The translations under genes and the position numbers were made by a program. Source: an uncultured Prolixibacteraceae bacterium (GTDB lineage Bacteria; Bacteroidota; Bacteroidia; Bacteroidales; Prolixibacteraceae). Taken from it: a DNA stretch of 64,000 nucleotides. Each line of letters opens with the position of its first letter. Position 1 is the first letter of the stretch. Shown here piece by piece: positions 5,241-38,936 of this stretch. The stretch is from assembly GCA_964393405.1 (NCBI GenBank), contig CAYMTR010000003.1:58915-122914 (forward strand), written 5' to 3'. The notes beneath the pieces are model-generated. The model worked only from the letters and a program-made list of their open reading frames with translations, made no database searches and had not been told where the DNA came from.

Positions 5241-8200
5241 TTAATATTCTCCCCAGCTTTTAATAGCTAAATCCTTAACATCATATTTGCAGAAAGCATT
5301 AATGAAAGCACTAGCAACACGTGCATTGGTTATAAGAGGGATATTGTAATCAATTGCTTTTCTTCTGATATAATATCCATTGCTTAACTCGCGAGTTGTA
5401 TGGTCTTTGGGGATATTAATAACTAAATCGAGTTTCTTTTCTCTTATATACTCATTGATGTTTGGTTTGAACTCCTCTTCATCAGGCCAATGTATTAAGT
5501 TACATTTCACATTGTTGTCTCTTAAAAATCTGTATGTACCATCAGTTGCGTATATATTGAACCCCTTTTCGGCAAGAAGTAATGCCGGCTTAAGTAATTC
5601 AACTTTTGATTTAGTTGGTCCCGAGGAGATTAGAATATTCTTTTTTGGGATTCTGTAGCCAACTGAAAGCATCGATTTTAATATTGCTTCATAAAAATTA
5701 TCGCCTAGGCAGGCTACTTCTCCTGTTGAACTCATATCTACTCCTAATACAGGATCGGCATTTAAAAGTCGGTGGAATGAAAATTGAGGTGCTTTGACTC
5801 CAACATATTCCAATTCAAATAACGATTTATCAGGTTTGGAATAAGGCACTCCCAGCATTACTTTTGTTGCAAGTTCAATCATATTGATTTTCATTACTTT
5901 TGATACAAAAGGAAAACTTCTTGAAGCTCTTAGATTACACTCAATTACCTTAATGTCGTTATCCTTAGCTAAGAGCTGCATGTTGAAAGGTCCTGATATT
6001 TCGAGCCCTTTTGCTACTTCACGGGATATCTTTTTTATTCTCCTTATAGTCTCGATATAAAGCTTTTGAGGAGGAAAAACTATAGTTGCATCTCCGGAAT
6101 GAACACCGGCAAATTCAACATGCTCTGAAATAGCGTAGGCAATTATTTCACCTTTATCAGCAACAGCATCAATTTCAATTTCTTTTGCTTGTTCAATGAA
6201 CTCCGAAACAACAACAGGATGTTCTTTTGAAACAATAGATGCTAGGTTTAAAAAATGCTCAAGTTGGTCGCTGTTTGAAACAACATTCATTGCTGCCCCT
6301 GAAAGTACATAAGAAGGGCGAATCAAAACCGGGAACCCTACTTCTTCGATAAATATCTGAATATCTTCAATGGTTGAAAGTTCTTTCCACCTAGGTTGAT
6401 CAACCCCAATAGTGTCAAGTAGTGATGAGAACTTCTTACGGTCTTCTGCATTATCGATTTTCACAGGAGAAGTACCTAAAATGTGTACTCCTTGGTTGAA
6501 AAGCTTCATAGCCAGATTGTTTGGTATCTGCCCACCTGTTGAAACAATAGTACCCCCCGGCTGTTCAAGATCAATTATATCCATTACCCTTTCAAATGAA
6601 AGTTCATCGAAATACAAACGATCGCAGTTGTCGTAGTCAGTACTAACTGTTTCAGGGTTATAGTTAATCATGATTGAACGATAGCCCTCTTTTCTGATAG
6701 TATTTACAGCATTTACACCGCACCAGTCAAATTCAACTGATGATCCTATTCTGTAAGCTCCTGATCCAAGAACAATTACTGATTTATTGTCATGTTGAAA
6801 TTCAATGTCGTGTTCAACTCCATTGTATGTTACATAAAGATAGTTGGTTTGAGCAGGGTATTCTCCAGCTAAAGTATCTATCTGTTTTATAAATGGGGTG
6901 ATACCTCTTTTTTTCCTATATTCTCTAACAGCAAGTTGCCCTGCAAACATACCTGAAATTGTAGGTTTTAGAACCATGCGGGCAATCTGGAAGTCGGAAT
7001 ATCCAATTTTTTTGGATTGAAGAATAATCTCATCAGGAAGGTCTTCTAATTTGTCGTATCTTCTTAAAATACAACGCATTTTGTAGATGCCTTCAAGTTT
7101 TTGAAGGAACCATCTGTCTATTTTAGTTCTTTCGTAAATTTCATCGACGGTATAATCTTTATGAAAAGCTTCAGCAATGGCAAAAATCCTACGGTCAGTA
7201 GGGTTAGTGAGTTCTTCTTCTATTGCATCGATAGTGATTTCTTCTCGGTTACCTACAAATCCATGCATTCCTTGTCCGATCATTCTGAGTCCTTTCTGGA
7301 TGGCTTCTTCAAAATTTCGTCCAATAGCCATAATTTCTCCGACAGACTTCATAGAACTTCCAATTTGTTTTGAAACTCCTACAAATTTACCGAGGTCCCA
7401 GCGCGGTATTTTACAAACAACATAATCAAGTGCCGGTTCAAAACAGGCAGTAGTAACTTTTGTGACTGAGTTTTTAAGTTCATGCAAGCCATAACCCATG
7501 CCAAGTTTGGCAGCTACGAAAGCAAGAGGATAACCAGTTGCTTTTGAAGCAAGAGCTGAAGAACGGCTTAATCTGGCGTTAACTTCAATTACACGGTAGT
7601 CTTCAGAAAAAGGATCAAGGGCAAACTGAACATTACATTCACCTATAACTCCTATCCGACGTATAATTCTGATCGAAAGCTCCCTAAGTTTATTGTATTC
7701 TTTATTTGATAAGGTTTGTGAAGGGGCAACTACAATACTTTCACCGGTATGAATGCCTAATGGATCAAAGTTTTCCATGTTGCAAACTGTTATACAGTTG
7801 TCGTATTGATCCCTTACAACTTCATATTCAACTTCTTTCCATCCTTTTATAGATTCTTCTACAAGAATTTGAGGTGAGTATGAAAATGCGTTTGATGCCC
7901 TAATTTCAAGTTCTTCCATGTTAGAGCAGAATCCTGAGCCTAATCCCCCTAAAGTATACGCAGCACGTATAATTATTGGGAACCCAACAGTCTCGACGGC
8001 CTTTCTGGCTTCGTCCATATTTTTGCATGCGATACTTGCTGGAGTTTTTACATCAATGCTATGTAAAATCTTAGCGAAAATATCCCTGTCTTCAGTGTCA
8101 ATAATTGATTGAACAGGAGTTCCTAAAACTTCAAGGTTGTATTTCTCAAGTACTCCTGATTCGTATAAAGCTACTCCGCAGTTGAGTGCTGTTTGTCCAC

Positions 8201-8474
8201 CAAAAGCAAGTAGAATGCCATCCGGATTTTCTTTTTTGATAACCTCTTCAACAAAAAAAGGAGTGACAGGTAAGAAATATATTTTATCAGCAATCTCTTC
8301 GGAAGTTTGAATAGTTGCTATGTTTGGATTTATCAAGATGGTTTCGATCCCTTCTTCTTTCAAGGCTTTTAATGCTTGGGATCCAGAATAGTCGAATTCT
8401 CCTGCTTCTCCAATTTTAAGTGCACCTGACCCTAAAACTATTGCTTTCTTAATATGTGATTTAAAATTTTTCAT
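5241..8474 (-). CDS. carB: Carbamoyl-phosphate synthase large subunit
   Basis: 1077 aa. Duplicated ATP-grasp halves, N-terminus GSGALKIGEAGEFDYSGSQA, C-terminal MGS-like domain. Lies directly downstream of carA. Confidence 0.97.
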   Translation of the reverse strand: MKNFKSHIKKAIVLGSGALKIGEAGEFDYSGSQALKALKEEGIETILINPNIATIQTSEEIADKIYFLPVTPFFVEEVIKKENPDGILLAFGGQTALNCGVALYESGVLEKYNLEVLGTPVQSIIDTEDRDIFAKILHSIDVKTPASIACKNMDEARKAVETVGFPIIIRAAYTLGGLGSGFCSNMEELEIRASNAFSYSPQILVEESIKGWKEVEYEVVRDQYDNCITVCNMENFDPLGIHTGESIVVAPSQTLSNKEYNKLRELSIRIIRRIGVIGECNVQFALDPFSEDYRVIEVNARLSRSSALASKATGYPLAFVAAKLGMGYGLHELKNSVTKVTTACFEPALDYVVCKIPRWDLGKFVGVSKQIGSSMKSVGEIMAIGRNFEEAIQKGLRMIGQGMHGFVGNREEITIDAIEEELTNPTDRRIFAIAEAFHKDYTVDEIYERTKIDRWFLQKLEGIYKMRCILRRYDKLEDLPDEIILQSKKIGYSDFQIARMVLKPTISGMFAGQLAVREYRKKRGITPFIKQIDTLAGEYPAQTNYLYVTYNGVEHDIEFQHDNKSVIVLGSGAYRIGSSVEFDWCGVNAVNTIRKEGYRSIMINYNPETVSTDYDNCDRLYFDELSFERVMDIIDLEQPGGTIVSTGGQIPNNLAMKLFNQGVHILGTSPVKIDNAEDRKKFSSLLDTIGVDQPRWKELSTIEDIQIFIEEVGFPVLIRPSYVLSGAAMNVVSNSDQLEHFLNLASIVSKEHPVVVSEFIEQAKEIEIDAVADKGEIIAYAISEHVEFAGVHSGDATIVFPPQKLYIETIRRIKKISREVAKGLEISGPFNMQLLAKDNDIKVIECNLRASRSFPFVSKVMKINMIELATKVMLGVPYSKPDKSLFELEYVGVKAPQFSFHRLLNADPVLGVDMSSTGEVACLGDNFYEAILKSMLSVGYRIPKKNILISSGPTKSKVELLKPALLLAEKGFNIYATDGTYRFLRDNNVKCNLIHWPDEEEFKPNINEYIREKKLDLVINIPKDHTTRELSNGYYIRRKAIDYNIPLITNARVASAFINAFCKYDVKDLAIKSWGEY

Positions 8475-8478
8475 TAGT

Positions 8479-9555
8479 TCAAGATTTAGAGATTTTCCTG
8501 ATATTATTTACAAAATCGTCGAAAAGGAATTCGGTATCAACCGGTCCGCTTGATGCTTCAGGATGAAATTGAGCAGAAAAGAAAGGTTTGGTTTTATGTT
8601 TAATCCCTTCGTTTGTATTATCATTAACATTTATGAAGAGTGGTTCCCAATCGTTCGAAATAGTTTCATTGATAATAGCATAGCCATGATTCTGAGATGT
8701 GATGAAACACCTGTTAGTTCCGGCAAGAAGAACAGGTTGATTGTGACTACGGTGCCCATATTTAAGCTTATAGGTTTCAGCACCTGCAGCCCTTGCAAGT
8801 AGCTGATTTCCTAAGCAAATACCCATAATGGGTTTGTTTGCTTTCATTGCTTCTTTTAAGTATTCGACAGTCTTTTCACAAATTGCAGGGTCGCCCGGAC
8901 CGTTTGATAGAAATAAGCCATCGAAATCTTCATTCAGATAGTTGTAATCCCAGGGCACTCTTTTAACTTTTACTCCTCTATCTATGAGACAGCGAATAAT
9001 ATAGTTTTTCACGCCACAATCGACCAAAACAACATTAATATCTCCTTCCCCGTAAGTTATTGTATTATCGCAGCTAACTTTAGCAACTAAATTCTCGAGA
9101 TTTGGATTGTAAAAATCTATTGGATCGTCTTCAAATTCAATTTTTCCAAGAAGCGAACCTTTTTCTCTGAGAACTTTTGTCAAAGCCCTTGTATCTACAT
9201 CGTATAAGCCGGGAATTTCGTTTTCTTTAAACCAATCGGCAAGACTTTTAACAGCATTCCAGTGGCTATATTCGAATGAATAATCCGAAATTATTAAACC
9301 TGAAACCTGTATCTTATCTGATTCAAAGAAATTGTGAATGCCATTTTTTATTGAATCATCCGGTACTCCATAATTACCTATCATAGGGAAAGTAGAAACC
9401 AAGATCTGACCACAATAAGAGGGGTCTGTTAAACTTTCAGGATACCCTACCATAGCAGTATGAAAAACAACTTCTCCTGAAATTGATTTTTCGCAGCCAA
9501 AAGATTTGCCTGTAAATACAGATCCATCTTCCAAAATAAGCTTTACTTTTTTCAA
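8479..9555 (-). CDS. carA: Carbamoyl-phosphate synthase small (glutaminase) subunit; TTG start
   Basis: 358 aa. Motifs GYPESLTDPSY, catalytic GICLGNQLL and HGYAI. The only in-frame canonical start at the conserved N-terminus (MKKVKLILEDG) is TTG. Confidence 0.95.
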   Translation of the reverse strand: MKKVKLILEDGSVFTGKSFGCEKSISGEVVFHTAMVGYPESLTDPSYCGQILVSTFPMIGNYGVPDDSIKNGIHNFFESDKIQVSGLIISDYSFEYSHWNAVKSLADWFKENEIPGLYDVDTRALTKVLREKGSLLGKIEFEDDPIDFYNPNLENLVAKVSCDNTITYGEGDINVVLVDCGVKNYIIRCLIDRGVKVKRVPWDYNYLNEDFDGLFLSNGPGDPAICEKTVEYLKEAMKANKPIMGICLGNQLLARAAGAETYKLKYGHRSHNQPVLLAGTNRCFITSQNHGYAIINETISNDWEPLFINVNDNTNEGIKHKTKPFFSAQFHPEASSGPVDTEFLFDDFVNNIRKISKS

Positions 9556-9577
9556 TGTTATTCTATTTTTTGAATTG

Positions 9578-9646
9578 CTACATAAAAAAAATGCGTTTAT
9601 CTGTTTTAACAGTTAAACGCATTTGCATCTTTTTAAAAACTCCCAT
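9578..9646 (-). promoter_or_regulatory. carAB leader: sense-strand intrinsic terminator (9583..9623) fully spanned by a 22-codon mini-ORF (MGVFKKMQMRLTVKTDKRIFFM)
   Basis: On the minus strand AATGCGTTTA-ACTGT-TAAA-ACAG-A-TAAACGCATT is followed by T8, ending 28 nt before the carA TTG. The ORF starts at ATG 9646 and stops at TAG 9578-9580, just past the T-tract. Confidence 0.6.
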
Positions 9647-9736
9647 TTAAATATCTTCGATCTCACTGGATTTGCTGTTTTAAATTCACGACAAAAATAA
9701 TAAACTTTCTTAAAAATTTATTGCACTATAAATATT

Positions 9737-9775
9737 AATGAATATTTTTGCAATCGTTTTGAATATTTATTCATT
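9737..9775. promoter_or_regulatory. Tandem ARG boxes (ArgR operator) in the carA-argR divergent region
   Basis: Core TGAATATTTATTCA (9760-9773) matches the TGAAT-wwww-ATTCA palindrome perfectly. A second core TGAATATTTTTGCA (9739-9752) starts exactly 21 bp upstream, which is two 18-bp boxes separated by 3 bp. The upstream box overlaps a TATTTTTG -7-like promoter box. Confidence 0.75.
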
Positions 9776-9780
9776 AATAA

Positions 9781-10263
9781 ATGAAAGCTCGTTTACAAAG
9801 ACAGGTTGCTATTAGGAGTGTAATTGGCCAAAACATTGTTACAAGCCAAGAGCAACTACTAATGTTATTAAAACGTAAAGGTTTTGAATTGACACAAGCA
9901 ACATTGTCGAGAGACATAAAAGTGTTAAAAATAGTAAAGTCGCCTGATTCATACGGAAGGTATGTATATACTTTACCCAAAGAACAGAATAACTTAGATT
10001 TGGGTGAATTAAAAGAAGAAAGCAGGTATTTGGCTGATGGCTTCGTTTCGATTGATTTCTCCTCGAATATTGCAGTAATAAGGACAAGGCCGGCTTATGC
10101 AAGCTCAATTGCTTCCCTGATCGACGGAGTTAAGTCTTTTGAAATTTTAGGAACGATAGCCGGTGACGATACAATATTCCTTGTATTAAGAGAAGGAGTT
10201 GAAAGAAAAGATTTAATTTATTTTTTAGAGGAAATAATGCCTAATATAAAGGGTAGGATTTAA
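9781..10263 (+). CDS. argR: Arginine repressor
   Basis: 160 aa. Winged-helix N-terminus (SQEQLLMLLKRKGFELTQATLSRDIKVL) and C-terminal oligomerisation/arginine-binding motif GTIAGDDTIFLV. Confidence 0.93.
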   Translation: MKARLQRQVAIRSVIGQNIVTSQEQLLMLLKRKGFELTQATLSRDIKVLKIVKSPDSYGRYVYTLPKEQNNLDLGELKEESRYLADGFVSIDFSSNIAVIRTRPAYASSIASLIDGVKSFEILGTIAGDDTIFLVLREGVERKDLIYFLEEIMPNIKGRI

Positions 10264-10273
10264 GGAAGAAAGA

Positions 10274-10957
10274 ATGAAAGAAATGGATCAATTAAAGGTT
10301 TTGGTTGCAGATGAGAGCCACATCAAATATGTGGATGAAATAAATGATACAATTCAAAGGGCTTCTATTGAAAGGGGTACAGGTATTGCACGTCGTACTT
10401 TTGAATATATAGCCAACAAGATGAAAGAAGGAAAGGCGATTATCGCTTTGGATGGAGATAAGTTTGCCGGATTTTGTTACATTGAATCGTGGGGGCATCA
10501 TAAATATGTTGCTAATTCAGGGTTGATAGTTGTAAAAGAATACAGAGGTGCAGGTTTGGCAAAAAGTATAAAAAAGAAAGCATTCGAGCTCTCGAGAATG
10601 AAATTTCCTGAATCAAAAATATTTGGCTTGACAACCGGATTGGCAGTAATGAAAATTAACTCAGAACTGGGATACAAGCCTGTTACATTTTCAGAGCTGA
10701 CAGATGATGAGGATTTTTGGAAAGGTTGTCAGAGTTGTGTCAATTATGATATTTTAGTACGAACAGAAAGAACTAAATGTCTTTGTACAGCAATGATTTA
10801 TGATCCAAAATGGGAGAAGAAGGAAGTTGTTGAAGGAAACAAGAAAGAGGATAAAGATGAAAAACTTCTTTCATTCAAACGATGGTTAAAGGGGAGACAA
10901 TCCAAGGGATATGAATCGTCGTTTATGTCAAAATTGAAATTATTTAAGAAACAATAA
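10274..10957 (+). CDS. GNAT-family acyltransferase of the arg operon, with a long Lys/Glu-rich C-terminal tail
   Basis: 227 aa. Acyl-CoA-binding-like segment VVKEYRGAGLAKSIKKKAFE. Positioned between argR and argG as in Bacteroides arg clusters. Confidence 0.75.
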   Translation: MKEMDQLKVLVADESHIKYVDEINDTIQRASIERGTGIARRTFEYIANKMKEGKAIIALDGDKFAGFCYIESWGHHKYVANSGLIVVKEYRGAGLAKSIKKKAFELSRMKFPESKIFGLTTGLAVMKINSELGYKPVTFSELTDDEDFWKGCQSCVNYDILVRTERTKCLCTAMIYDPKWEKKEVVEGNKKEDKDEKLLSFKRWLKGRQSKGYESSFMSKLKLFKKQ

Positions 10958-11273
10958 ATATATAATGGTGCCGCAATTTCCAATGGCTGGTAATTCGCAA
11001 TTTCATAAATCAGTTGTATTGAATGCTTTGCAGTATTTAACGTGTAATTGGTTTTCATTTTAGATGCAGAGCAATACTTCATTGGTATTTGGGTTAGTAA
11101 ATATTTTTCTAAAGCGGCACCATTTTTATATGATTTTTCAATTAACAAAAAACCTAAAAGCATAGTTAAAATTATCTGGAGTGATCATGTTTGTTTATAT
11201 TTGGATTTGTTAATCGTACTCTTATAGATTACTTCGATATTAATGTTCTATTTAGTTATATTTAATAATTGAC

Positions 11274-12476
11274 ATGGAAAACAATAAAGTTGTTTTAGCC
11301 TTTAGTGGCGGGTTGGATACTTCATTTTGTGCAATGTATCTTGCTAAAGAAAAGGGATTGGAAGTCTATACCGCAATAGCTAATACCGGCGGATTCTCAG
11401 AAAAAGATTTAGAATTAATTGAAGAAAAAGCATACAAGCTGGGTGCCAAAAAGCATGTGGCGATTGATGTGACAGACAAATATTATAATCAGAGCATTCG
11501 ATATATGATATTTGGAAATGTTTTAAGGAATAATACATATCCAATATCAGTAAGCTCTGAAAGAATATTTCAGGCTATTGCTATTATTCAGTATGCAAAA
11601 GAGATTGGAGCAGCATATGTTGCTCATGGAAGTACAGGTGCTGGAAACGATCAGGTTAGGTTTGACTTGACATTCGAAGTATTGGCTCCAGAAATTAAAA
11701 TTCTAACACCAACCCGTGACCTTGAATTAACAAGAGAATATGAAATCAATTATTTGAAGACTCATGGTATTGAAGCCGATTTCAAAAAAATGGAATATTC
11801 AATAAATGCAGGTCTTTGGGGAACAAGCATTGGGGGGAAAGAAACTCTTAAATCTGAAAAAACTTTGCCCGAGAATGCTTATCCAAGTCAGCTTGTAGAA
11901 CAGGTTGAAAGGGAAATTTCAATAAGCTTTGAGAAGGGCGAAGTGAGAAAAGTAAACGGAGAAAAATATGCAAATCCGGTCGACGCAATTAAAAAAATCA
12001 ACGAAATAGCATCTCAATATGCTATTGGAAGAGATATGCATATTGGAGATACAATTATAGGTATAAAAGGAAGGGTAGGTTTCGAAGCAGCTGCTCCAAT
12101 GATTATAATAAAAGCTCACCAGATGCTTGAGAAACATACGTTGACCAAATGGCAGCAATATTGGAAAGAACAGCTGGGTAACTGGTACGGGATGTTTTTA
12201 CATGAAGCATTATACCTTGAGCCTGTTATGAGAGATATAGAGAAGTTTCTCGAGAATTCTCAGCAAAATGTTAATGGTGCTGTAATTGTAAAATTGAGAC
12301 CTTACAATTTTCAACTTGTAGGAGTTGATTCACCAAATGATTTAATGAAGTCAGATTTTGGTGAATACGGAGAAATAAATAAAGCGTGGACAGCTGATGA
12401 TGTAAAAGGATTTACTAAAATCTTAGGAACTCAGCTTAAAATATATAACGCAGTTAATAAGAACTTTGAAAGTTAA
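11274..12476 (+). CDS. argG: Argininosuccinate synthase
   Basis: 400 aa. N-terminal ATP-pyrophosphatase motif VVLAFSGGLDTS and overall ArgG architecture. Confidence 0.95.
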   Translation: MENNKVVLAFSGGLDTSFCAMYLAKEKGLEVYTAIANTGGFSEKDLELIEEKAYKLGAKKHVAIDVTDKYYNQSIRYMIFGNVLRNNTYPISVSSERIFQAIAIIQYAKEIGAAYVAHGSTGAGNDQVRFDLTFEVLAPEIKILTPTRDLELTREYEINYLKTHGIEADFKKMEYSINAGLWGTSIGGKETLKSEKTLPENAYPSQLVEQVEREISISFEKGEVRKVNGEKYANPVDAIKKINEIASQYAIGRDMHIGDTIIGIKGRVGFEAAAPMIIIKAHQMLEKHTLTKWQQYWKEQLGNWYGMFLHEALYLEPVMRDIEKFLENSQQNVNGAVIVKLRPYNFQLVGVDSPNDLMKSDFGEYGEINKAWTADDVKGFTKILGTQLKIYNAVNKNFES

Positions 12477-12480
12477 TCAG

Positions 12481-13449
12481 ATGATAAAGGTTGGAATTAT
12501 AGGCGGTGCAGGATATACAGCAGGTGAGCTTTTGAGAATTTTAATAAATCATCCCGAAGCTGAAGTTGCATTTGTTCATAGCACAAGTAATTCAGGAAAT
12601 AAGATCACTGATGTTCACAAAGATCTTCTGGGAGAAACTGACCTTGTTTTCAAAAGTAAATATGAATTTGACGGACTTGACTTAATCTTCTTGTGTTCAG
12701 GACACGGCAAGTCAATTGAGTTTCTTAAAAACTATACCTTGCCGAAAAGCCTTCGTGTGATTGACTTAAGCCACGATTATAGGTTGAAGCGCGAAGGAAA
12801 CAAATTTGTATATGGTCTTCCCGAATTAAACAGAGATCTGATTGCTAATTCGAAATATATTGCCAATCCCGGTTGTTTTGCTACAGGAATAGAATTAGCT
12901 ATACTCCCTTTGGCAGCAATGGGTTTAATTAAGGGAGAAATCCACGTTTCAGCTATGACAGGATCAACTGGCGCTGGACAAAAACCTACTGAGACTTCTC
13001 ATTTCAGCTGGAGGAATAATAATATTTCTGCTTACAAGATTTTTACCCATCAGCACAATGATGAGATAATCCAAAGTTTAAAACAACTTCAGCCCGATTA
13101 TAATATTAACCTTAATTTTATACCTTTGAGAGGCAATTTTAGCAGAGGAATACTAACGACAGCTTACACAGAATTTGAAGGAACCCTTGATGATGCATAT
13201 AGGATTTTTAGAAATTATTATAACTCTCATTGTTTCACTCATGTTGTTGATTATAATCCTGATTTAAAATTGATTGTGAATACCAACAAGTGTATTTTAT
13301 ACCTTGAGAAACATGAGAATAAGTTAGTGGTGATAAGTATTATTGATAATCTCTTAAAAGGTGCTTCAGGGCAAGCTGTTCAAAATATGAACCTGATGTT
13401 CGGCATTGATGAAAAATCAGGACTCAACTTAAAACCAATAGCATTCTAA
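12481..13449 (+). CDS. argC: N-acyl-gamma-glutamyl-phosphate reductase
   Basis: Motifs MIKVGIIGGAGYTAGELLRIL and catalytic-Cys ANPGCFATG. ATG at 12481 is preferred over the TTG at 12466, which overlaps the argG stop. Confidence 0.93.
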   Translation: MIKVGIIGGAGYTAGELLRILINHPEAEVAFVHSTSNSGNKITDVHKDLLGETDLVFKSKYEFDGLDLIFLCSGHGKSIEFLKNYTLPKSLRVIDLSHDYRLKREGNKFVYGLPELNRDLIANSKYIANPGCFATGIELAILPLAAMGLIKGEIHVSAMTGSTGAGQKPTETSHFSWRNNNISAYKIFTHQHNDEIIQSLKQLQPDYNINLNFIPLRGNFSRGILTTAYTEFEGTLDDAYRIFRNYYNSHCFTHVVDYNPDLKLIVNTNKCILYLEKHENKLVVISIIDNLLKGASGQAVQNMNLMFGIDEKSGLNLKPIAF

Positions 13450-13473
13450 CTAATCCAACACACAAAAATAGAT

Positions 13474-14607
13474 ATGGAACTATTTAATGTTTATCCATTA
13501 TTTAATATCGACCTTGTCAAAGGTGAAGGAGTTTACGTGATTGACAGAAATGGTCAAAGATACTTAGATCTTTACGGAGGTCATGCCGTTATTTCAATAG
13601 GACATTCTCACCCTCACTATGTGGCGGCGATTTCTGCACAACTTGAAAAGCTTGGATTTTACTCAAATTCTGTTTTCAATCCTTTGCAAAAAGAGCTAGC
13701 AAAGAAATTAGGGGAATTATCTGGATTTGATAATTACAGTCTGTTCTTATGTAACAGCGGTGCAGAGGCTAACGAAAATGCATTAAAACTAGCTTCTTTT
13801 CATACAGGTAAATCAAAAGTTATTGCCTTCAAGAAGGCTTTTCATGGTAGAACATCTGGAGCTGTTGGTATTACTGATAATTCAAAGATAATTGCACCTA
13901 TTAACGTCAAGAAAGATGTCGTTTTCCTAGAATTAAACGATTTGCAATCTGTAGAGGATCAACTGAAAGGAGGAGACGTTGCTGCCGTAATTATTGAAGG
14001 TATTCAGGGAATAGGCGGAATAAGAGTTCCTGAGAATAGTTTTCTGAGAGGATTACAGGATTTATGTTCAGAGTATAACTCTGTTTTTATTATCGATGAA
14101 ATTCAGTCTGGATATGGAAGAAGCGGTCGTTTCTTTGCTTTTCAACATGCAGATGTTTTCCCTGATATTATTACTGTAGCTAAAGGAATGGGAAATGGAT
14201 TCCCGGTTGGGGGAGTGCTCATAAGTCCAAAATTCAAGGCTGAAAATGGAATGCTAGGTACTACCTTTGGTGGCAATTACTTAGCGTGTGCTGCAAGTAT
14301 AGCCGTGCTGGATGTATTAAAATCACAAAGATTAATATCAAATGCAGAAGAAATTGGAAATTACCTGATTTCTGAACTTAAAAAGATTCCTCAGATTAAA
14401 GAAGTAAGAGGAAGAGGATTGATGATTGGAATTGAGTTTGAAAATGAAATATCTGAGTTGAGGAAAAAACTTTTATTTGAAAAGAAAATATTTACCGGAG
14501 TTTCAGGAACTAATACCATTAGAATATTGCCGCCTCTTAATCTAAGAAAGGAGAATGCGTCATTATTCATTGAAAAACTTAAGGAATCGATAACAGAACT
14601 ATCATAA
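13474..14607 (+). CDS. argD: Acetyl/succinyl-ornithine aminotransferase (class III PLP)
   Basis: 377 aa. Motifs DEIQSGYGRSGRFFAFQH and PLP-lysine TVAKGMGNGFP. Confidence 0.92.
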   Translation: MELFNVYPLFNIDLVKGEGVYVIDRNGQRYLDLYGGHAVISIGHSHPHYVAAISAQLEKLGFYSNSVFNPLQKELAKKLGELSGFDNYSLFLCNSGAEANENALKLASFHTGKSKVIAFKKAFHGRTSGAVGITDNSKIIAPINVKKDVVFLELNDLQSVEDQLKGGDVAAVIIEGIQGIGGIRVPENSFLRGLQDLCSEYNSVFIIDEIQSGYGRSGRFFAFQHADVFPDIITVAKGMGNGFPVGGVLISPKFKAENGMLGTTFGGNYLACAASIAVLDVLKSQRLISNAEEIGNYLISELKKIPQIKEVRGRGLMIGIEFENEISELRKKLLFEKKIFTGVSGTNTIRILPPLNLRKENASLFIEKLKESITELS

Positions 14608-14619
14608 AACTAGTTGAAA

Positions 14620-15423
14620 ATGGAATTTAATAAAATAGCGATTGTTGGAGCCGGTAATCTTGGCTTTTCAATAGTTAAAGGCTTAATCGCTTCAAAGCTT
14701 TATAATAAAGAAAATCTTATTCTTACTGAAAAGAATCCTAAAAGATTGAATTCTCTTGTTGAAGAAGGTTTTAATGCTACGGAAAACAATGTTGAAGCTG
14801 TCAAACAATCTGATTTGATTATGCTTGTTGTTAAACCCTGGCAGATTGAAGAGGTTTTGCTGGATATTAAATCATCCATTGACGAAAAGAGACATGTTCT
14901 TGTATCTTGTGTTACAGGGATTCAATCAAGCCATATTTATAACATCCTTGACTGTAAACCAACTTTATTCAGAGTAATGCCAAACACGGGTGTTGCAATA
15001 CAAGAGTCTATGTCGTGTATCGCATCATTCAATGAAACTAATGAACAAAAGGAAGCTATAAAAAAGATCTTCAGTCAGCTTGGTGAAGTGCTTTTTATCT
15101 CGGAGGAATTAATGCCTGCTGCAACAGCTTTAGCTGGATGCGGAATTGCATTTGCACTACGATTTATTAGAGCTTCAATTCAAGCCGGAGTCGAAATCGG
15201 CTTTAGTGCAGAAGATGCAAAAATCCTGGCTTCTCAAATAACTAAAGGTGCTGCTGAATTAATTTTAAAGAATAATTCACATCCGGAAGCCGAAATTGAT
15301 AAAGTGACTACTCCAAAGGGAATTACTATTACCGGATTGAACGAAATGGAGCATTCGGGATTTAGTTCGTCAATAATTAAAGGAATTATGGCTTCATACA
15401 ATAAGATTGAAAGGAAGGAATAA
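14620..15423 (+). CDS. proC: Pyrroline-5-carboxylate reductase
   Basis: Motifs IAIVGAGNLG and C-terminal TTPKGITITGL. ATG at 14620 is preferred over the TTG at 14614. Starts 13 nt after argD. Confidence 0.9.
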   Translation: MEFNKIAIVGAGNLGFSIVKGLIASKLYNKENLILTEKNPKRLNSLVEEGFNATENNVEAVKQSDLIMLVVKPWQIEEVLLDIKSSIDEKRHVLVSCVTGIQSSHIYNILDCKPTLFRVMPNTGVAIQESMSCIASFNETNEQKEAIKKIFSQLGEVLFISEELMPAATALAGCGIAFALRFIRASIQAGVEIGFSAEDAKILASQITKGAAELILKNNSHPEAEIDKVTTPKGITITGLNEMEHSGFSSSIIKGIMASYNKIERKE

Positions 15424-15515
15424 TCTTTAATTTGTATTTTTAACGACTTCTGAAAGCTTATTTAATAAGGTCTCAGCTCTTTTCTTTTACCAAGAGTTCA
15501 ATTTCTATTATTTAT

Positions 15516-15550
15516 CTTGAAATTATTAGATTCAAGTGTTTATTTTTTTT
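15516..15550 (+). terminator. Weak candidate terminator after proC
   Basis: 6-bp stem CTTGAA/TTCAAG followed by TGTTTATTTTTTTT. Confidence 0.3.
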
Positions 15551-15601
15551 GTTCTTTGAATAAAAATAATGACATTTGTCATGTTTTCATTATCATCATG
15601 A

Positions 15602-16690
15602 ATGAACAATATGAAATTTAAGAGGGTTGCAATTAAAATTGGTAGTAACGTTCTGGCTACTAAAGATGGTTCACTTGATGTTGAAAGAGTGGCACATATA
15701 GTAGAACAGGTTTCTATTTTGCTTAAAAAGAAAGTGGAAGTAATTCTGATTTCTTCAGGTGCTGTTGCTTCAGGTAGGGCTATGTTTCCTGTAGAAAACA
15801 AAATTGATACTGTTTCTGCGCGTCAATTATGGTCAGCAATAGGTCAGGTTAAGTTGATGAACACTTATTCTGGTTTGTTTGGTGAATGTGGCTTACATTG
15901 TGCTCAGGTTCTTACTACTAAAGAAAACTTCAGCGACAGGCGCCATTATCTCAATATGAAAAATTGTATTTCAACCTTATTGGAAAATGGAGTTGTACCA
16001 ATTGTAAACGAAAATGATACTATATCTGTTTCTGAATTGATGTTTACTGATAATGATGAATTGTCAGGATTGATTTCTTCAATGATGAATTGTGAAGCTT
16101 TATTAATTCTTTCAAATGTTGATGGTATATATAACGGAAAACCGGGTGATGAAGGAGTGTCAGTAATACCTGAGATTTCTTCAAGCGACCATTCAATGGC
16201 TGAATTTATTTCGCAACAGAAATCAGGTTTAGGCAGAGGTGGGATGCATACTAAATTCAGTGTTGCAAGAAAGATTGCCGCTGAAGGAATACCAGTTTAT
16301 ATCGCAAATGGGAAAAGGGAAAATATAATTGTTGACATTTTAAAAGGAGAAAATATCGTTTATACTCTCTTCAAGCAAAATGGTAAAAAATTGAAAAGCA
16401 ACAAAAAGTGGCTTGCTCACTCTACTAGTTTTGCCAAAGGGAAAGTGTTTGTAAACGAGGGAGCTAAAGCTGCTTTGTCGAATGTTGGCGCCAATAGTTT
16501 GTTGTTGATAGGAGTAGTTGACATAGAAGGATTTTTCAAACAAGGTGATATTATAAGTATTATTGATGGCGAAGGAAATGTTTTGGGTCTTGGAAAATCT
16601 CAGTATGACTCCGATGATGCTATTAATTTGATTGGGAAAAAAGCTGCAAAACCCCTTATTTATTACGATTACATGTATCTTTATGACTAA
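15602..16690 (+). CDS. proB: Glutamate 5-kinase with C-terminal PUA domain
   Basis: 362 aa. Motif KRVAIKIGSNVL, amino-acid-kinase fold and a PUA-like C-terminus. The start could be ATG 15611. Confidence 0.92.
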   Translation: MNNMKFKRVAIKIGSNVLATKDGSLDVERVAHIVEQVSILLKKKVEVILISSGAVASGRAMFPVENKIDTVSARQLWSAIGQVKLMNTYSGLFGECGLHCAQVLTTKENFSDRRHYLNMKNCISTLLENGVVPIVNENDTISVSELMFTDNDELSGLISSMMNCEALLILSNVDGIYNGKPGDEGVSVIPEISSSDHSMAEFISQQKSGLGRGGMHTKFSVARKIAAEGIPVYIANGKRENIIVDILKGENIVYTLFKQNGKKLKSNKKWLAHSTSFAKGKVFVNEGAKAALSNVGANSLLLIGVVDIEGFFKQGDIISIIDGEGNVLGLGKSQYDSDDAINLIGKKAAKPLIYYDYMYLYD

Positions 16691-16743
16691 ATTTTTATTA
16701 TAGTTTAAGAGCAATATTTGGATTTTAAAACTTACTAAACATT

Positions 16744-17991
16744 ATGGATTGTACTCAAATTTTTGAAAACGTACTGAAAGCAAGCCGTAAATTGAATTTA
16801 CTGGATGGCGAGAAGATAAATGCTATTTTAAATGATTTAGCTGACGCTTCTGAAATTAGTTGTGACTTTATTCTTTCTGAGAATAAAAAGGATTCATCTC
16901 TTATGGATGTTGCTGATCCTAAGTATGACAGATTAAAATTAACTGAAGAAAGAATAAAAGGAATAGCTGAAGATATCAGAAATGTAGCTTCTTTGCCTTC
17001 TCCGCTTGGCAGAAAACTTTCAGAAACAATCCGTCCGAATGGATTAAAAATTACTAGGATATCAGTTCCTTTCGGAGTGATTGGTATTATATACGAAGCC
17101 CGTCCTAATGTAACTTTTGATGTTTTCTCTCTTTGCTTAAAATCGGGAAATGCTTGTGTTCTGAAAGGTGGAAGTGATGCATTTAATTCAAATACCGCAA
17201 TAGTAAGCATAATTCATGATGTGCTAAAAAGATATGATGTTGATGTAAACATTTTAACTTTATTACCTTCTGGAAGGGAAGAAACTGCTCAATTGCTTAA
17301 TGCACGAGGATATGTCGATTTGATTATTCCAAGGGGCAGTCAGAGCCTTATTGATTTTGTAAGAAAAAATGCTTCAATACCGGTGATTGAGACTGGAGCA
17401 GGAATTTGTCATACTTATTTTGATGAATTTGGTGACAAGGTGAAGGGGCGTGATATTGTCAATAACGCCAAAACAAGAAGAGTGAGCGTGTGTAATGCCC
17501 TTGATTGTCTTTTAATTAATAGAAAGCGACTTGATGATCTTTACTTTATTACTGAGCTTTTGAAGAATTCAAATGTGGTAATTTATGCCGACGAATATTC
17601 ATATCCATTTTTAAAGGGCAAATACCCCTCTGATTTGTTGGAACATGCAACAGAAGAGTCGTTTGGTACCGAATTCTTATCTTATAAGATGGCAATCAAA
17701 ACCGTAGATTCTTTTGAAGATGCAATAACCCAGATCAATAATTATGGTTCTAAACACAGTGAAGCTATTATTTCTGAAGACCTTGAAAACGTTAGAGCCT
17801 TCCTTAAAAGGGTTGATGCTTCTTCTGTTTATTCAAATACATCTACAGCATACACTGACGGTGCTCAATTTGGTTTAGGTGCCGAAATCGGCATTTCAAC
17901 GCAAAAATTACATGCCCGGGGGCCCATGGGTCTCGAAGAAATGACATCCTATAAATGGATAATTGAGGGTGATGGTCAAATAAGACCTTAA
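16744..17991 (+). CDS. proA: Glutamate-5-semialdehyde dehydrogenase (gamma-glutamyl phosphate reductase)
   Basis: 415 aa. Motifs [11 protein letters not shown] and catalytic-Cys [10 protein letters not shown]. Confidence 0.93.
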
Positions 17992-18046
17992 TAATATTTT
18001 AATATTCTCCAGAAGCAATTTTTTTAAATATTCAAATTGATTCATT

Positions 18047-18997
18047 ATGAAACATTTTACTTCAGTAAACGATTTGCCTTCCATTAAAGAAGCTTTGGAT
18101 GAAGCATTTATTGTTAAAAAAAATCCTTATGATTTTCAACATCTTGGGAAAAACAAAACCATGATTTTAATGTTCTTTAACTCCAGTTTGAGAACCAGAT
18201 TAAGCACTCAAAAGGCTGCTGAAAATATGGGAATGAAAGTGATGGTTCTTGATGTAAACCTTGGCGCATGGAAGCTTGAAACTGAAAGGGGTGTGATTAT
18301 GGATGGAGATAAAGCAGAACATCTTCTTGAGGCAATACCTGTTATTGGTTCTTATGCAGACATAATTGGAGTTCGATCTTTCGCACAGTTCAACAGTAGG
18401 GACGAGGACTATTCTGAAAATGTTCTTAGCCAGTTTGTTAAATATTCAGGAGTCCCAGTTGTAAGCATGGAAGCGGCAACAAGACATCCTTTGCAAAGTT
18501 TTGCTGATCTTATTACCATGGTTGAGTATAAAAAGGTTGAAAAGCCAAAGGTCGTTTTGACATGGGCACCTCATCCAAGGGCTTTGCCTCAGGCTGTTCC
18601 TAACTCATTTGTTGAATGGATGAAAGCTGCCGATTATGATTTGGTAGTAACACATCCTGAAGGTTATGAACTTGCCTCTGAGTTTATGGGCGATTTAAAG
18701 CCTGAATATGATCAAAATAAAGCTTTTAAAGGTGCAGATTTCATTTATGCAAAGAATTGGGCATCTTATTCCGATTACGGGAAAATTCTATCAAAAGATA
18801 TGAATTGGACAGTATCGGATAGGCAAATGGCTTTGACCAATGATGCTAAATTTATGCATTGCCTCCCTGTAAGGAGAAATATGATTGTTACCGATGATGT
18901 AATTGAAAGTAAAAATTCTATTGTGATTCCTGAGGCAGCAAACAGGGTTGTATCCGCACAAGCAGTTCTAAAAATGATACTTGAAGATTTGAAATAA
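18047..18997 (+). CDS. argF': N-acyl-L-ornithine carbamoyltransferase, Bacteroides ArgF' type (predicted N-succinylornithine-specific)
   Basis: 316 aa. As far as I recall the B. fragilis ArgF' sequence, this ORF is near-collinear with it (FFNSSLRTRLSTQKAA, GAWKLETERGVIMDGDK, EAATRHPLQSFADL, HCLPVRRN). Confidence 0.88.
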   Translation: MKHFTSVNDLPSIKEALDEAFIVKKNPYDFQHLGKNKTMILMFFNSSLRTRLSTQKAAENMGMKVMVLDVNLGAWKLETERGVIMDGDKAEHLLEAIPVIGSYADIIGVRSFAQFNSRDEDYSENVLSQFVKYSGVPVVSMEAATRHPLQSFADLITMVEYKKVEKPKVVLTWAPHPRALPQAVPNSFVEWMKAADYDLVVTHPEGYELASEFMGDLKPEYDQNKAFKGADFIYAKNWASYSDYGKILSKDMNWTVSDRQMALTNDAKFMHCLPVRRNMIVTDDVIESKNSIVIPEAANRVVSAQAVLKMILEDLK

Positions 18998-23162: not shown

Positions 23163-23176
23163 ATCGATTTTTTTAT

Positions 23177-23207
23177 AAAAAAAAACCATCCTCTTTTTGA
23201 GAATGGT
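23177..23207 (-). terminator. ilv attenuator terminator (alternative antiterminator uses 23243..23252)
   Basis: On the minus strand ACCATTCTC-AAAAA-GAGGATGGT (9 bp, one G-U pair) is followed by T9, ending 14 nt before the ilvD ATG. The same ACCATTCTCA segment pairs perfectly (10 bp) with TGAGAATGGT, which includes the leader stop codon. Confidence 0.8.
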
Positions 23208-23249
23208 CTGTTAATATTTTTTTGATTTATTTACATCACTTAACCATTC

Positions 23250-23324
23250 TCACTTCTTAGAAATGACGACCACTACTACTAGTAGTACTACTTCAAGAAT
23301 GGATATGTTCAGTAAATTCTTCAC
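23250..23324 (-). CDS. ilv operon leader peptide MKNLLNISILEVVLLVVVVVISKK (GTG start)
   Basis: 24 codons, 15 of them Val/Leu/Ile, including an uninterrupted run VVLLVVVVVI. An in-frame TAA lies 3 codons upstream of the GTG. The TGA stop is embedded in the antiterminator arm. Confidence 0.7.
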   Translation of the reverse strand: MKNLLNISILEVVLLVVVVVISKK

Positions 23325-23583
23325 TTTATTTTCTTATGAAAGCAAATGTATAAATAAAAATTAAAAATCAAAATCTATCTCTAACTTTGTTAGTTAATTA
23401 ACTTTCATTTATTAATTATTTGTATATATAATTATTGAAATTCATATTTTCAACAATCTAATTCTATTGTTCGACAATTTATTGTTGATCTATTATATGC
23501 CTTTTTGATTTTTATTTTGTAAATTCAACATCATTGAATCTGATTCTAATAATCAAATTTCTCTTACTTTAAAAATTGATAAC

Positions 23584-35716: not shown

Positions 35717-37144
35717 ATGCCGAAGAATCACTATCAGATTTGGAATGATTGTCTCTTAATAATTAAAGATAATGTACAACCGACAAGTTTTAGAACTTGG
35801 TTTGAACCAATAAAGCCTCTGAAAATTGCGAATGACATTCTAACAATTCAGGTTCCTAGTCCATTTTTTTATGAGTATTTAGAAGAACAATATATAGATA
35901 TTCTTAGAAAGACTCTGAGAAAGGTTATTGGCAATAATGCAAAGCTTGAGTACAATGTAGTTATGAGCACTACTCAGCAAAAGAGTGGCTCCCTAACTGT
36001 TAATTATCCTGCAAATAATAATTCAAAATTAAATAACAGACCTATTTCATTTCCGTTTGGCGAAAATTCCGGAGTAATTAAGAACCCTTTTATAATCCCG
36101 GGTATTAAAAAACTACATATTGACCCGCAACTTAAAAAAGATAATACTTTCGATAATTTCATAGAAGGAGAATGTAACAGATTAGCTCGTAGTGCAGGTT
36201 ATGCAGTTGCTCAAAATCCGGGAGGGACATCTTTTAATCCTCTGATGATATATGGCGACAGTGGTTTGGGAAAAACTCATTTGGCCCATGCTATTGGAAT
36301 TGAAGTCAAAGAAAGATTTCCTGAGAAAGTAATACTTTACGTAACAGCTAATAAATTTGCATCTCAATATTCAGAAGCTTCAATTTCTAACACAAGAAAT
36401 GATTTTATGCATTTCTATCAAATGATTGATGTGTTAATTATTGATGATGTTCAAGAATTCTCGGGAAAAGAAAAATCCCAGGAAACATTTTTCCATATTT
36501 TCAACCATCTGCACCAATCAGGGAAGCAGTTAATTCTTACTTCAGACAAAGCTCCTACAGAAATAAGCGGAATTCAAGAAAGGCTTCTTTCCAGATTCAA
36601 ATGGGGACTAACTACTGATCTTCAGGTGCCTGATTATGAAACCCGCTTATCTATTTTAAAGAAAAAGACATATAAGGATGGTTTAACGATGCCTGAACAG
36701 GTTCTTGAATATATTGCACAGAATATATACACAAATGTCAGGGAACTTGAAGGAGCTTTAATATCATTACTTGCACAGTCGACCTTGAATAAAAAAGCAA
36801 TAACCAAAGATTTGGCTGTTGAAATGATCAATAAGATTGTGAAGCAAAACAGGCATGAGATTACGATTGATTATATTCAAAAAATAGTTTGTGATTACTT
36901 CAGCTTACCAGTCGATTCTTTACAGTCGAATACAAGAAAAAGGGAAGTTGTTCAGGCCAGGCAGATTGCTATGTTCTTTTCAAAAAGTCTTACAAAATCA
37001 TCACTGGCTTCAATTGGATCACAAATTGGACAAAAAGACCATGCAACAGTTTTACATGCCTGTAAGACAGTAAATAATTTGATAGATACTGACAGACAAT
37101 TTAAAATTGATGTAGAAGAAATAGAAAAAAGGCTGAAGGTGTAA
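35717..37144 (+). CDS. dnaA: Chromosomal replication initiator protein DnaA
   Basis: 475 aa. Walker A GDSGLGKTHL, IIDDVQ, and a C-terminal DNA-binding domain (KDHATVLHA). Confidence 0.97.
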   Translation: MPKNHYQIWNDCLLIIKDNVQPTSFRTWFEPIKPLKIANDILTIQVPSPFFYEYLEEQYIDILRKTLRKVIGNNAKLEYNVVMSTTQQKSGSLTVNYPANNNSKLNNRPISFPFGENSGVIKNPFIIPGIKKLHIDPQLKKDNTFDNFIEGECNRLARSAGYAVAQNPGGTSFNPLMIYGDSGLGKTHLAHAIGIEVKERFPEKVILYVTANKFASQYSEASISNTRNDFMHFYQMIDVLIIDDVQEFSGKEKSQETFFHIFNHLHQSGKQLILTSDKAPTEISGIQERLLSRFKWGLTTDLQVPDYETRLSILKKKTYKDGLTMPEQVLEYIAQNIYTNVRELEGALISLLAQSTLNKKAITKDLAVEMINKIVKQNRHEITIDYIQKIVCDYFSLPVDSLQSNTRKREVVQARQIAMFFSKSLTKSSLASIGSQIGQKDHATVLHACKTVNNLIDTDRQFKIDVEEIEKRLKV

Positions 37145-37186
37145 ATCAAGGCTTAGGCAGGTCAATAGATCTGCTTTTTTTATTGT

Positions 37187-37798
37187 ATGGAAGATAAAGA
37201 AGATGTATACAAAACAATTGAGTTGCCTTCCGAAGGAATTTTCAAGGACAAAGGCAGTAAATTCTTAGCATTTGCTTATCCTGTCAATGACGAACAGTCA
37301 ATAAAATCAATAATCACAACTTTAAAAAAAGAACATTTTAGCGCTCGCCATCATTGTTATGCGTATCGGCTGGGTTATAACGGTGAAATTTTCAGGATGA
37401 ACGATGATGGAGAACCATCAGGTACAGCAGGCAGGCCAATACTCGGGCAGTTATTAAGTAATAACCTGACCAATATTTTAGTTGTAGTTGTCAGATATTT
37501 TGGTGGAACCCTTCTCGGAGTAAGTGGGTTAATAAATGCATATAAGAACGCCACAATTGACGTTATTTCTAATTCAGACGTAGTCAATAAAATCATAAAG
37601 AATAAGTTGCATATTGAATTCGATTATCTTAATCAGAATTCAGTAATGAAGATTATAAAGGATTATCAGCTTGAGATAGAGAAGGCTGATTATGGCATTA
37701 AATGCATGATAGATGTTAATGTCAGACAGGGTGAAACAGAAAGAGTCATTGAGAAGATTTCAAAAATTGAAGGAGTAAGAGTTTTAGATTCATTTTAA
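37187..37798 (+). CDS. yigZ: YigZ/IMPACT-family protein
   Basis: 203 aa. Motifs GSKFLAFAYPV, ARHHCYAYR and DDGEPSGTAGRPIL. Confidence 0.85.
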   Translation: MEDKEDVYKTIELPSEGIFKDKGSKFLAFAYPVNDEQSIKSIITTLKKEHFSARHHCYAYRLGYNGEIFRMNDDGEPSGTAGRPILGQLLSNNLTNILVVVVRYFGGTLLGVSGLINAYKNATIDVISNSDVVNKIIKNKLHIEFDYLNQNSVMKIIKDYQLEIEKADYGIKCMIDVNVRQGETERVIEKISKIEGVRVLDSF

Positions 37799-37925
37799 TT
37801 TAAAAAAATGAAACTGTGATGAATTTTATTGTTAAAAATTTTAACTTTATGCTTTAATGAAACGTTTGAAAAAATATAATTTAAGCTTGGGGTGCTTTAT
37901 AATCGCTGCACAAATAACAAGATTT

Positions 37926-37976
37926 ATGAAATTGCATAAAAGACCAGTAGACTCTCTATTGGTCTTTTTTATATGA
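37926..37976 (+). promoter_or_regulatory. pyrBI leader: intrinsic terminator hairpin (37941..37970) fully spanned by a 16-codon mini-ORF (MKLHKRPVDSLLVFFI)
   Basis: AGACCAGTAGA-ctc-TCTATTGGTCT (11 bp, one G-U pair) followed by T6, 44 nt upstream of the pyrB ATG. The ORF runs ATG 37926 to TGA 37974-37976. Confidence 0.5.
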
Positions 37977-38013
37977 AAATGGTCGATATATATAAGAGTT
38001 AAAAATTTCAAAA

Positions 38014-38925: not shown

Positions 38926-38936
38926 AATTATAATTT

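Follow-up and report, generated by a model that had tools for sequence, protein, structure and literature searches.

Arginine and pyrimidine synthesis both draw on carbamoyl phosphate, and the balance between the two is a classic regulatory question; in Escherichia coli, for instance, carAB is under cumulative repression. At pyrBI of E. coli and Salmonella, control is exerted by UTP-sensitive, translation-coupled attenuation, in which a close-following ribosome blocks the terminator stem. Start sites at which an A precedes a run of T give UTP-dependent reiterative transcription at E. coli pyrBI, carAB P1, codBA, and upp. In fungi, the arginine attenuator peptide encoded by the CPA1/arg-2 uORF (a conserved peptide of ~24 residues) acts in translation and, being eukaryotic, offers an analogy only. 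To our knowledge, Shine-Dalgarno pairing is not used in Bacteroidia.

For carAB of Pseudomonas aeruginosa, a transcriptional arginine control and an attenuation that responds to pyrimidines, with a leader peptide, have been described (Kwon et al. 1994, in the account given where it is cited, PMC4997734). The P1 promoter of E. coli carA shows UTP-dependent reiterative transcription and no attenuation (PMC6245113; PMC6524683), and the carA motif of Polynucleobacter and other beta-proteobacteria, an extended imperfect hairpin beside the ribosome-binding site, is a riboswitch candidate (PMC8632094). No description of the Bacteroidia carAB element considered here, or of its control, was found in the literature searched or in Rfam. 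As a compact, sequence-invariant predicted terminator upstream of CPSase genes, the element would provide a directly testable handle on carbamoyl-phosphate control in Bacteroidia, and it could serve as a small natural part for gene control in Bacteroides.

The carAB leader and its hairpin

The window (the whole stretch of 64,000 nucleotides that was analysed) belongs to Prolixibacteraceae (Marinilabiliales, Bacteroidia) and carries carAB on the minus strand, with the following features in and around the leader:

5241-8474, minus: carB (TIGR01369, 1532 bits)
8479-9555, minus: carA (TIGR01368, 445 bits; match from residue 5, at profile position 2), with a TTG start at 9555-9553
9556-9686, minus: predicted carAB leader RNA of ~130 nt, its limits taken from the promoter box and from the carA TTG
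9584-9591, minus: U-tract (T8), ending 28 nt before the carA TTG
9591-9622, minus: predicted carAB leader terminator hairpin of 32 nt, with a 9-bp lower stem, an A.A mismatch, a 4-bp upper stem, and a UAAA loop
9622-9614, minus: 5' arm AUGCGUUUA, next to the A.A mismatch
9612-9609 and 9604-9601, minus: upper stem, CUGU and ACAG, enclosing the UAAA loop
9599-9591, minus: 3' arm UAAACGCAU
9616-9622, minus: invariant heptamer AUGCGUU at the base of the 5' arm, i.e., AUG, the Arg codon CGU, and U
9578-9622, minus: mini-ORF starting at the AUG of the arm, MRLTVKTDKRIFFM and stop, in the same frame as a longer ORF from 9646
9692-9699, minus: candidate -7 element of the carAB promoter, TATTTTTG (Bacteroidetes consensus TAnnTTTG)
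9781-10263, plus: argR, divergent from carA and the sole gene upstream of the carA hairpin

The genes carA, carB, and argR, together with the arg genes downstream of argR, were identified by NCBIfam models above their cut-offs. In the window sequence TTG is the first possible in-frame start of carA, and the carA of a relative (L003) also starts with TTG, without any in-frame alternative. This start codon, as well as UUG initiation of E. coli carA, had been claimed by the sequence-only reading that preceded this analysis; both are correct, as E. coli carA uses TTG (PMC6245113).

The hairpin folds with -16 kcal/mol, compared with -4.8 +/- 2.3 kcal/mol for shuffled sequences (z = -4.9; 0/200 shuffles as stable), and the pattern ATGCGTT..CGCATTTTT has a single occurrence in the 64-kb window and none in 100 shuffles. 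With three G-C pairs in the lower part of the 9 + 4 bp stem and the T8 directly after it, the predicted structure is that of an intrinsic terminator, and the earlier description of a sense-strand hairpin and T8 located 28 nt before the carA start agrees with both the window sequence and the folding. The carA hairpin was missed by a standard terminator scan, which has no tolerance for internal mismatches, because of its own mismatch. In a census of all strong intergenic hairpins followed by T6 in the window, ordinary terminators were found 5-30 nt past a co-directional stop codon, and the only exceptions were the leaders of carA, pyrB, and ilvD.

From the promoter consensus, carAB transcription is expected to start near 9686. 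The window and each of 13 relatives have exactly one copy of TAnnTTTG at 47-103 nt upstream of the hairpin, and this box is invariant in the alignment of carA leaders. Because the conserved box lies upstream of the hairpin, the hairpin would belong to the carAB leader and would have to be transcribed through to reach carAB; the stretch from the U-tract to the carA start (24-33 nt in most relatives) contains no -7 box and is too short for another promoter. The view that this is a leader element and not a gene-end terminator is thereby upheld, as no co-directional gene ends upstream and the -7 box is upstream in all relatives. Between the -7 element and the hairpin lie ~65 nt of A/U-rich leader without remarkable features, and in the alignment of the relatives' carA leaders this part showed no sequence conservation across the family and was unalignable.

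At the expected start sites, an A followed by TTT(T) was seen in the window (9681-9690) and within the first 12 nt past the -7 box in relatives, and starts of the AATTT, ATTTT, and GTTTTT types occur in many carA/carB leaders and in pyrB leaders. The reiterative transcription hinted at by these T-runs was judged not significant, since the genome is 66% A+T and chance could produce them.

Distribution of the element and constraint on its stem

A protein-homology scan using one genome per species yielded 68 carA loci. ATGCGTT...CGCATTTTTT was found upstream of carA in 13/13 Marinilabiliales relatives (CarA identity 58-88%) and in 0/55 loci of other groups. Protein homology also yielded three more relatives of L008, the member that diverges most, and these have the element as well; it is present in all 16 Marinilabiliales relatives obtained in this way. 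The hairpin is thus retained in 16/16 relatives, but the start of the 22-codon ORF from which attenuation had initially been proposed is not. A covariance model of 25 distinct copies scored the window copy at 64.2 bits and gave no additional match in the 556 kb of collected sequence.

A DNA-pattern scan of metagenomes returned at least 120 stretches, in which the Bacteroidales variants are biased by the pattern used. At least 13 matches have a CPSase gene 29-66 nt downstream on the same strand (carA in at least 3 and carB in at least 10). Among the matches listed, one further match is truncated by a contig end, the element is located 38-66 nt before carB in Bacteroidales contigs, four groups can be told apart by sequence among the carB examples (of which several come from human gut assemblies), and matches away from CPSase genes are mostly ordinary or chance terminators, e.g., upstream of lepA. 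Each of the four carB groups has its own conserved promoter-like box. As CPSase genes number ~2 per several thousand, the association of the element with them is not due to chance. Three carB loci of other lineages, sampled by protein homology and blind to the pattern, had no motif (L197), no terminator (L199), or a different leader terminator (L198), which indicates that the element is not universal.

Several other elements were observed in the collected sequences. A recurrent bidirectional terminator, AAAAAATGCGTTGG..CCAACGCATTTTTT, occurs in gut metagenome contigs (L069, L072, L076, L078, L096, L097, L103, L108, L128, L129, L150, and L188), in several of them upstream of lepA; it has an ATGCGTT/AACGCAT base in common with the carA hairpin and no CPSase association. 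In Flavobacteriales and other Bacteroidota (L014, L015, L016, L017, and L020), a different conserved element, the inverted repeat TTTTTAGAAA-aacc-TTTCTAAAAA, occupies the 30 nt before the carA ATG and abuts this start codon, with a conserved promoter-like region upstream and without a terminator or AUGCGUU. The gene order in L197 is GATase-carA-carB, and a long near-perfect inverted repeat with no T-run, CACCACAGAGGACACAGAG ... CTCTGTGTTCTCTGTGGTG (L197:3395-3480), fills the carA-carB spacer. CPSase leader terminators of other sequence were seen in L198 (3273-3500; AUCCCC..GGGGAU and U8) and L011 (2860-3000; GUCCCCC..GGGGGAU and U7). The latter contig is labelled as a Patescibacteria MAG, yet its CarA is 58% identical to that of the window, and it may have been misbinned or its carA may have been horizontally acquired.

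The heptamer AUGCGUU is identical in 25/25 distinct leaders, and since 16 of these were fetched by protein homology, its invariance in that group is not a product of the pattern search. The first five pairs of the lower stem are invariant, the sixth and seventh have A or G as the 3' base and always U as the 5' base, and the eighth pair outward covaries (U-A in 16 copies, A-U in 6). The upper stems vary in sequence and length, yet they pair in every relative (-11.8 to -21.2 kcal/mol); as covariance-model realignment left these variable stems out of register, their support is drawn from the individual folds. Six Ts of the U-tract never vary, and nearly all relatives have the full T8. The conserved bases of the element are Watson-Crick paired, with none in loops. 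The pyrB hairpin of the same family covaries in its lower stem, which argues for an additional sequence constraint on the sense 5' strand at carA; judged by the alignments, the constraint on the sense-strand 5' arm AUGCGUU exceeds the needs of pairing. Reading the inverted repeat as a DNA-binding site was rejected in view of the arm spacing (13-26 bp), the covariation of the inner stem, and the strand-asymmetric conservation.

The pyrB and ilvD leaders

The two other leaders singled out by the census comprise the following features:

37842-37849, plus: -7-like box TAACTTTA upstream of pyrB
37857-37976, plus: pyrB leader ORF of 39 codons, MKRLKKYNLSLGCFIIAAQITRFMKLHKRPVDSLLVFFI and stop, which crosses the pyrB leader terminator
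37938-37970, plus: predicted pyrB leader terminator, a hairpin and T6 (-16.7 kcal/mol, z = -6.6)
23172-23350, minus: predicted ilvD leader attenuator, upstream of ilvD (true ATG 23162) and ilvB
23350-23343, minus: -7 box of the ilvD leader, TACATTTG
23324-23250, minus: ilvD leader ORF of 24 codons, VKNLLNISILEVVLLVVVVVISKK and stop, Val/Leu/Ile-rich
23207-23177, minus: ilvD terminator, ACCAUUCUC-aaaaa-GAGGAUGGU and T9

The pyrB leader terminator is located 44 nt before the pyrB ATG and 143 nt past the yigZ stop codon. The hairpin is kept in five relatives (L189-L193), with compensatory changes in the lower stem among relatives much closer than those of the carA set. The leader AUG lies inside a conserved TTTAATGAA, just past a TAnnTTTA/G box, and 5/5 of these relatives have leader ORFs of 27 to ~80 codons, whose ends lie next to, within, or past the hairpin. 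An ORF running over a terminator had been noted at pyrB from the window alone, and the case is stronger than claimed, with the hairpin and AUG conserved and the ORF ending at, in, or after the hairpin in 6/6 genomes. Translational coupling is suggested in L191 and L192, where the leader ORF extends as far as pyrB and meets its start codon in an ATGA overlap or as TAA with ATG immediately after it.

The ilvD leader contains CCAUUCUU, GAGAAUGG, and ACCAUUCUC, which are able to form alternative pairings, and as a whole it folds with z = -5.1; it had no Rfam family match. Having both a regulatory codon run and mutually exclusive pairings, it is a predicted classical leader-peptide attenuator, and its presence in the window would mean that ribosome-coupled attenuation is in use in this organism.

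The AUG of the pyrB leader (37857) follows its -7-like box by a few bases, so the mRNA of the leader peptide would be leaderless or almost leaderless. The gene order dnaA - yigZ(IMPACT) - pyrB - pyrI - small GAF-domain protein (35717-39850, plus) is kept in L189, L190, and L192. A dnaA terminator lies at 37156-37181, and the chromosomal origin region may be nearby.

Candidate mechanisms of carAB attenuation

The comparative data strongly support the hairpin of the carA leader as an attenuator of carAB. With its conservation across the class Bacteroidia, human gut Bacteroidales included, and an AUG-CGU-U at its base that does not change, it is very probably an on/off switch, so far uncatalogued, for the supply of the arginine and pyrimidine precursor. 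We infer that termination does occur there, that a ribosome is involved, and that the signal is UTP, Arg-tRNA, or both. By analogy with pyrBI, a translation-coupled, UTP-sensitive mechanism is the best-supported, putative model, and we see about an even chance that carAB has a ribosome-coupled attenuator that works without an antiterminator and follows a pyrBI-like logic. Transcription would start near 9686 at a Bacteroidetes-type promoter and the polymerase would then reach a strong intrinsic terminator, with carAB being expressed by read-through only. In constrained folding, pairing of the arm with the upstream leader was no better than in shuffles, and zero in 9/22 leaders, which speaks against an antiterminator. 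A pairing of an upstream RRCGC with GCGUU in the L008 clade was dismissed as too weak for prediction and absent elsewhere. With no competing RNA structure, the decision would be made by something that occupies the single-stranded 5' arm. A ribosome positioned on the AUG-CGU that never changes at the foot of the hairpin would be the most likely occupant; it would either initiate at the AUG of the arm or, in leaders with an in-frame or abutting ORF upstream, come from that ORF. Scarce UTP would slow the polymerase at the eight-U tract and at other U runs, and the ribosome would come first, block the stem, and allow read-through; with plentiful UTP the stem would close and transcription would stop, as in the leaders of E. 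coli pyrBI and P. aeruginosa carAB. Such a mechanism would show ribosome-coupled attenuation in bacteria that do not use Shine-Dalgarno initiation.

The 22-codon ORF on which the sequence-only reading had built its attenuator, MGVFKKMQMRLTVKTDKRIFFM and stop (9646-9578), is present in the window, but not even the closest relatives (L001 and L002) share its start at 9646. The ORF that begins at the AUG of the arm overlaps at least the 5' arm in every relative. Among 17 Prolixibacteraceae/Marinilabiliales leaders, it ends 2-52 nt past the U-tract in 12, continues in frame into carA in 2 more, and stops early in L003, L006, and L008. In most Prolixibacteraceae it reads MRL... and passes through the stem; in the L008 clade it reads MRFYC-stop, and in L003 and all Bacteroidales examples among the matches listed it is M-R-stop. 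Of the carB groups, A and B have a 36-37-codon ORF that ends with ...SSLVMR-stop in frame inside the arm, and at five positions, read from the sequences, they encode the same amino acid through synonymous differences, which argues that this ORF is probably translated. In the sequences of groups C and D, an ORF upstream of the arm terminates 12 nt or 1 nt short of its AUG. The terminators of L198 and L011, although unrelated to the carA element, are each entered, as read from the sequences, by an 18-20-codon ORF with its stop in the loop. Together with the pyrBI-like leader and the ilv leader-peptide attenuator in the same window, these ORFs favour a ribosome as the occupant of the arm.

Several observations weigh against the ribosome. 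The start-context score of the arm AUG is middling (its median falls at the ~82nd percentile of all ATGs, far short of real gene starts), and the second codon is unlike the A-rich type of real genes. In L001 and L002 there is no upstream ORF able to bring a ribosome to the arm AUG, and de novo initiation would have to outrun hairpin folding. Past AUG-CGU neither the frame nor the length of the ORF is conserved, each of the three frames being found relative to the 3' arm, and coding alone cannot account for CGU never being CGC, even opposite G. U-rich tracts that could pause the polymerase upstream of the hairpin form long runs in Bacteroidales groups A and B and are missing from several other leaders; the U5 that had been pointed out after the leader AUG of the 22-codon ORF is present (9639-9635) and recurs at the same place in L001, but is no general feature. 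As to the signal, low UTP at the U-tract might itself raise termination instead of lowering it.

The carA leader resembles that of pyrBI in having a strong predicted intrinsic terminator and a U8-type tract just before a pyrimidine-pathway gene, a short ORF overlapping the terminator (9646 or 9622 to 9578), and no antiterminator. It differs from it in that the two have no sequence relationship, the UTP dependence at carA is putative, the U-rich pause tracts are inconsistent among the carA leaders, and the only conserved start lies inside the 5' arm, whereas that of pyrBI is at least ~25 codons upstream. The pyrB leader of the window matches the layout of E. coli pyrBI more closely than the carA leader does. 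With the carA motif the element shares its position as a conserved RNA element directly upstream of carA (PMC8632094), but the Bacteroidia element is a predicted terminator with a U-tract and matches no Rfam model.

A different occupant of the arm is conceivable, namely a protein that binds single-stranded RNA, or a small RNA, that reads AUGCGUU and prevents or promotes closure of the stem depending on a metabolite. Seven fixed 5' bases combined with wobble tolerance on the 3' side are what would be expected of a sequence-specific reader of the unpaired arm, CGU is never swapped for a synonymous codon, and the mediocre initiation context and the lack of an antiterminator fit this as well; that the family has proteins of this kind is indicated by an RRM-domain protein gene near pyrBI in L192. 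Against this, none of the relatives examined has a candidate regulator linked to the locus, the related CPSase and pyrB leader terminators that lack the heptamer still have an overlapping ORF, as expected of a generic ribosome mechanism, and a small RNA conserved over two orders would be unusual. We consider such a reader unlikely, if worth keeping in mind.

The preferred ribosome-coupled model also has a tentative extension, which we regard as rather improbable, in which AUG-CGU(-stop) is a minimal two-input sensor and the ribosome is held on it either by low UTP (through the delay at U8) or by uncharged Arg-tRNA. If this were true, one hairpin would compute "carbamoyl phosphate if pyrimidines or arginine are short", an RNA-level counterpart of the cumulative repression of E. 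coli carAB, shared by Prolixibacteraceae and the Bacteroidales of the human gut.

Arginine could also be the only signal, with a ribosome that has AUG in the P site stalling at the single CGU in the A site when Arg-tRNA is short and masking the arm, to give read-through with no role for UTP. An Arg codon follows the AUG in 25/25 leaders, with a stop next in all Bacteroidales examples and L003, and a separate route for arginine would make sense with the ARG boxes located on the promoter of argR and not of carA. One regulatory codon is nevertheless far below what is known from amino-acid attenuators, and the ilv leader of the window has a Val/Leu/Ile run and an antiterminator. Moreover, the ORF crosses the hairpin in most Prolixibacteraceae, where a ribosome would block the stem whether stalled or not, and the perfect T8 would remain unexplained; we find arginine as the sole signal quite unlikely. 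The trp/his/ilv attenuators have a leader ORF, a terminator, and the ribosome as sensor in common with the carA leader, but the latter has no regulatory codon run; with its single CGU and no 2:3 alternative pairing, a classical amino-acid leader-peptide attenuator was rejected for carA.

It is very doubtful that the hairpin is an unregulated partial terminator, holding carAB transcription at a constant low level, or that it marks where a stable short RNA derived from the leader ends. Short carA 5' UTR transcripts were reported in P. syringae with no evident leader peptide (PMC4997734), and no sensor domain is visible in the carA leader, but neither function needs a heptamer that is invariant over two orders while the upper stem drifts, and the specific link to CPSase genes would be unexpected.

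A PyrR-type attenuator, as brought up in the sequence-only reading, or a metabolite riboswitch upstream of the terminator is highly improbable and largely refuted, for although Rfam searched at a permissive threshold gave weak matches to RF00515 (with an AUC-CAGUGA-GAU mini-hairpin at 9669-9657) and to the trpB motif RF04312, their scores (20.5 bits against a gathering threshold of 54, and 22.5 against 59) are both carried by the terminator part, the loop similar to that of a PyrR binding site (ARUCCAGAGAGGYU) is altered in the closest relatives (L001 and L002), Rfam at gathering threshold gave nothing relevant in the window or in four Bacteroidales loci, and the leader upstream of the hairpin has no conserved sequence, no conserved aptamer, and no alternative pairing.

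As far as the cited account of it goes, carAB of P. aeruginosa is the closest functional precedent for the leader described here, being the same operon and combining a leader ORF and a leader terminator with sites for the arginine repressor close to the promoter. The two belong to different phyla and are likened by description only, and the ARG boxes of the window overlap the divergent argR promoter and not that of carA:

9739-9752 and 9760-9773: two ARG boxes, TGAATATTTTTGCA and TGAATATTTATTCA, read from the sequence, 21 bp centre to centre
9743-9750, plus: candidate -7 box of argR, overlapped by the ARG boxes

The boxes also overlap the expected start site of the argR operon, sit at least 40 bp upstream of the carA -7 box, and are kept in the argR-carA spacers of relatives. 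Arginine control of carAB through ARG boxes had been proposed from the window, and the boxes are indeed there; because they are located on the argR promoter, an arginine input to carA through them is uncertain, i.e., possible but not evident. An arginine/proline cluster starts with argR (9781-18997, plus) and continues with a GNAT-like gene, argG, argC, argD, proC, proB, proA, and N-acetylornithine carbamoyltransferase. The location of the candidate argR -7 box inside an ARG box implies autoregulation of this whole cluster.
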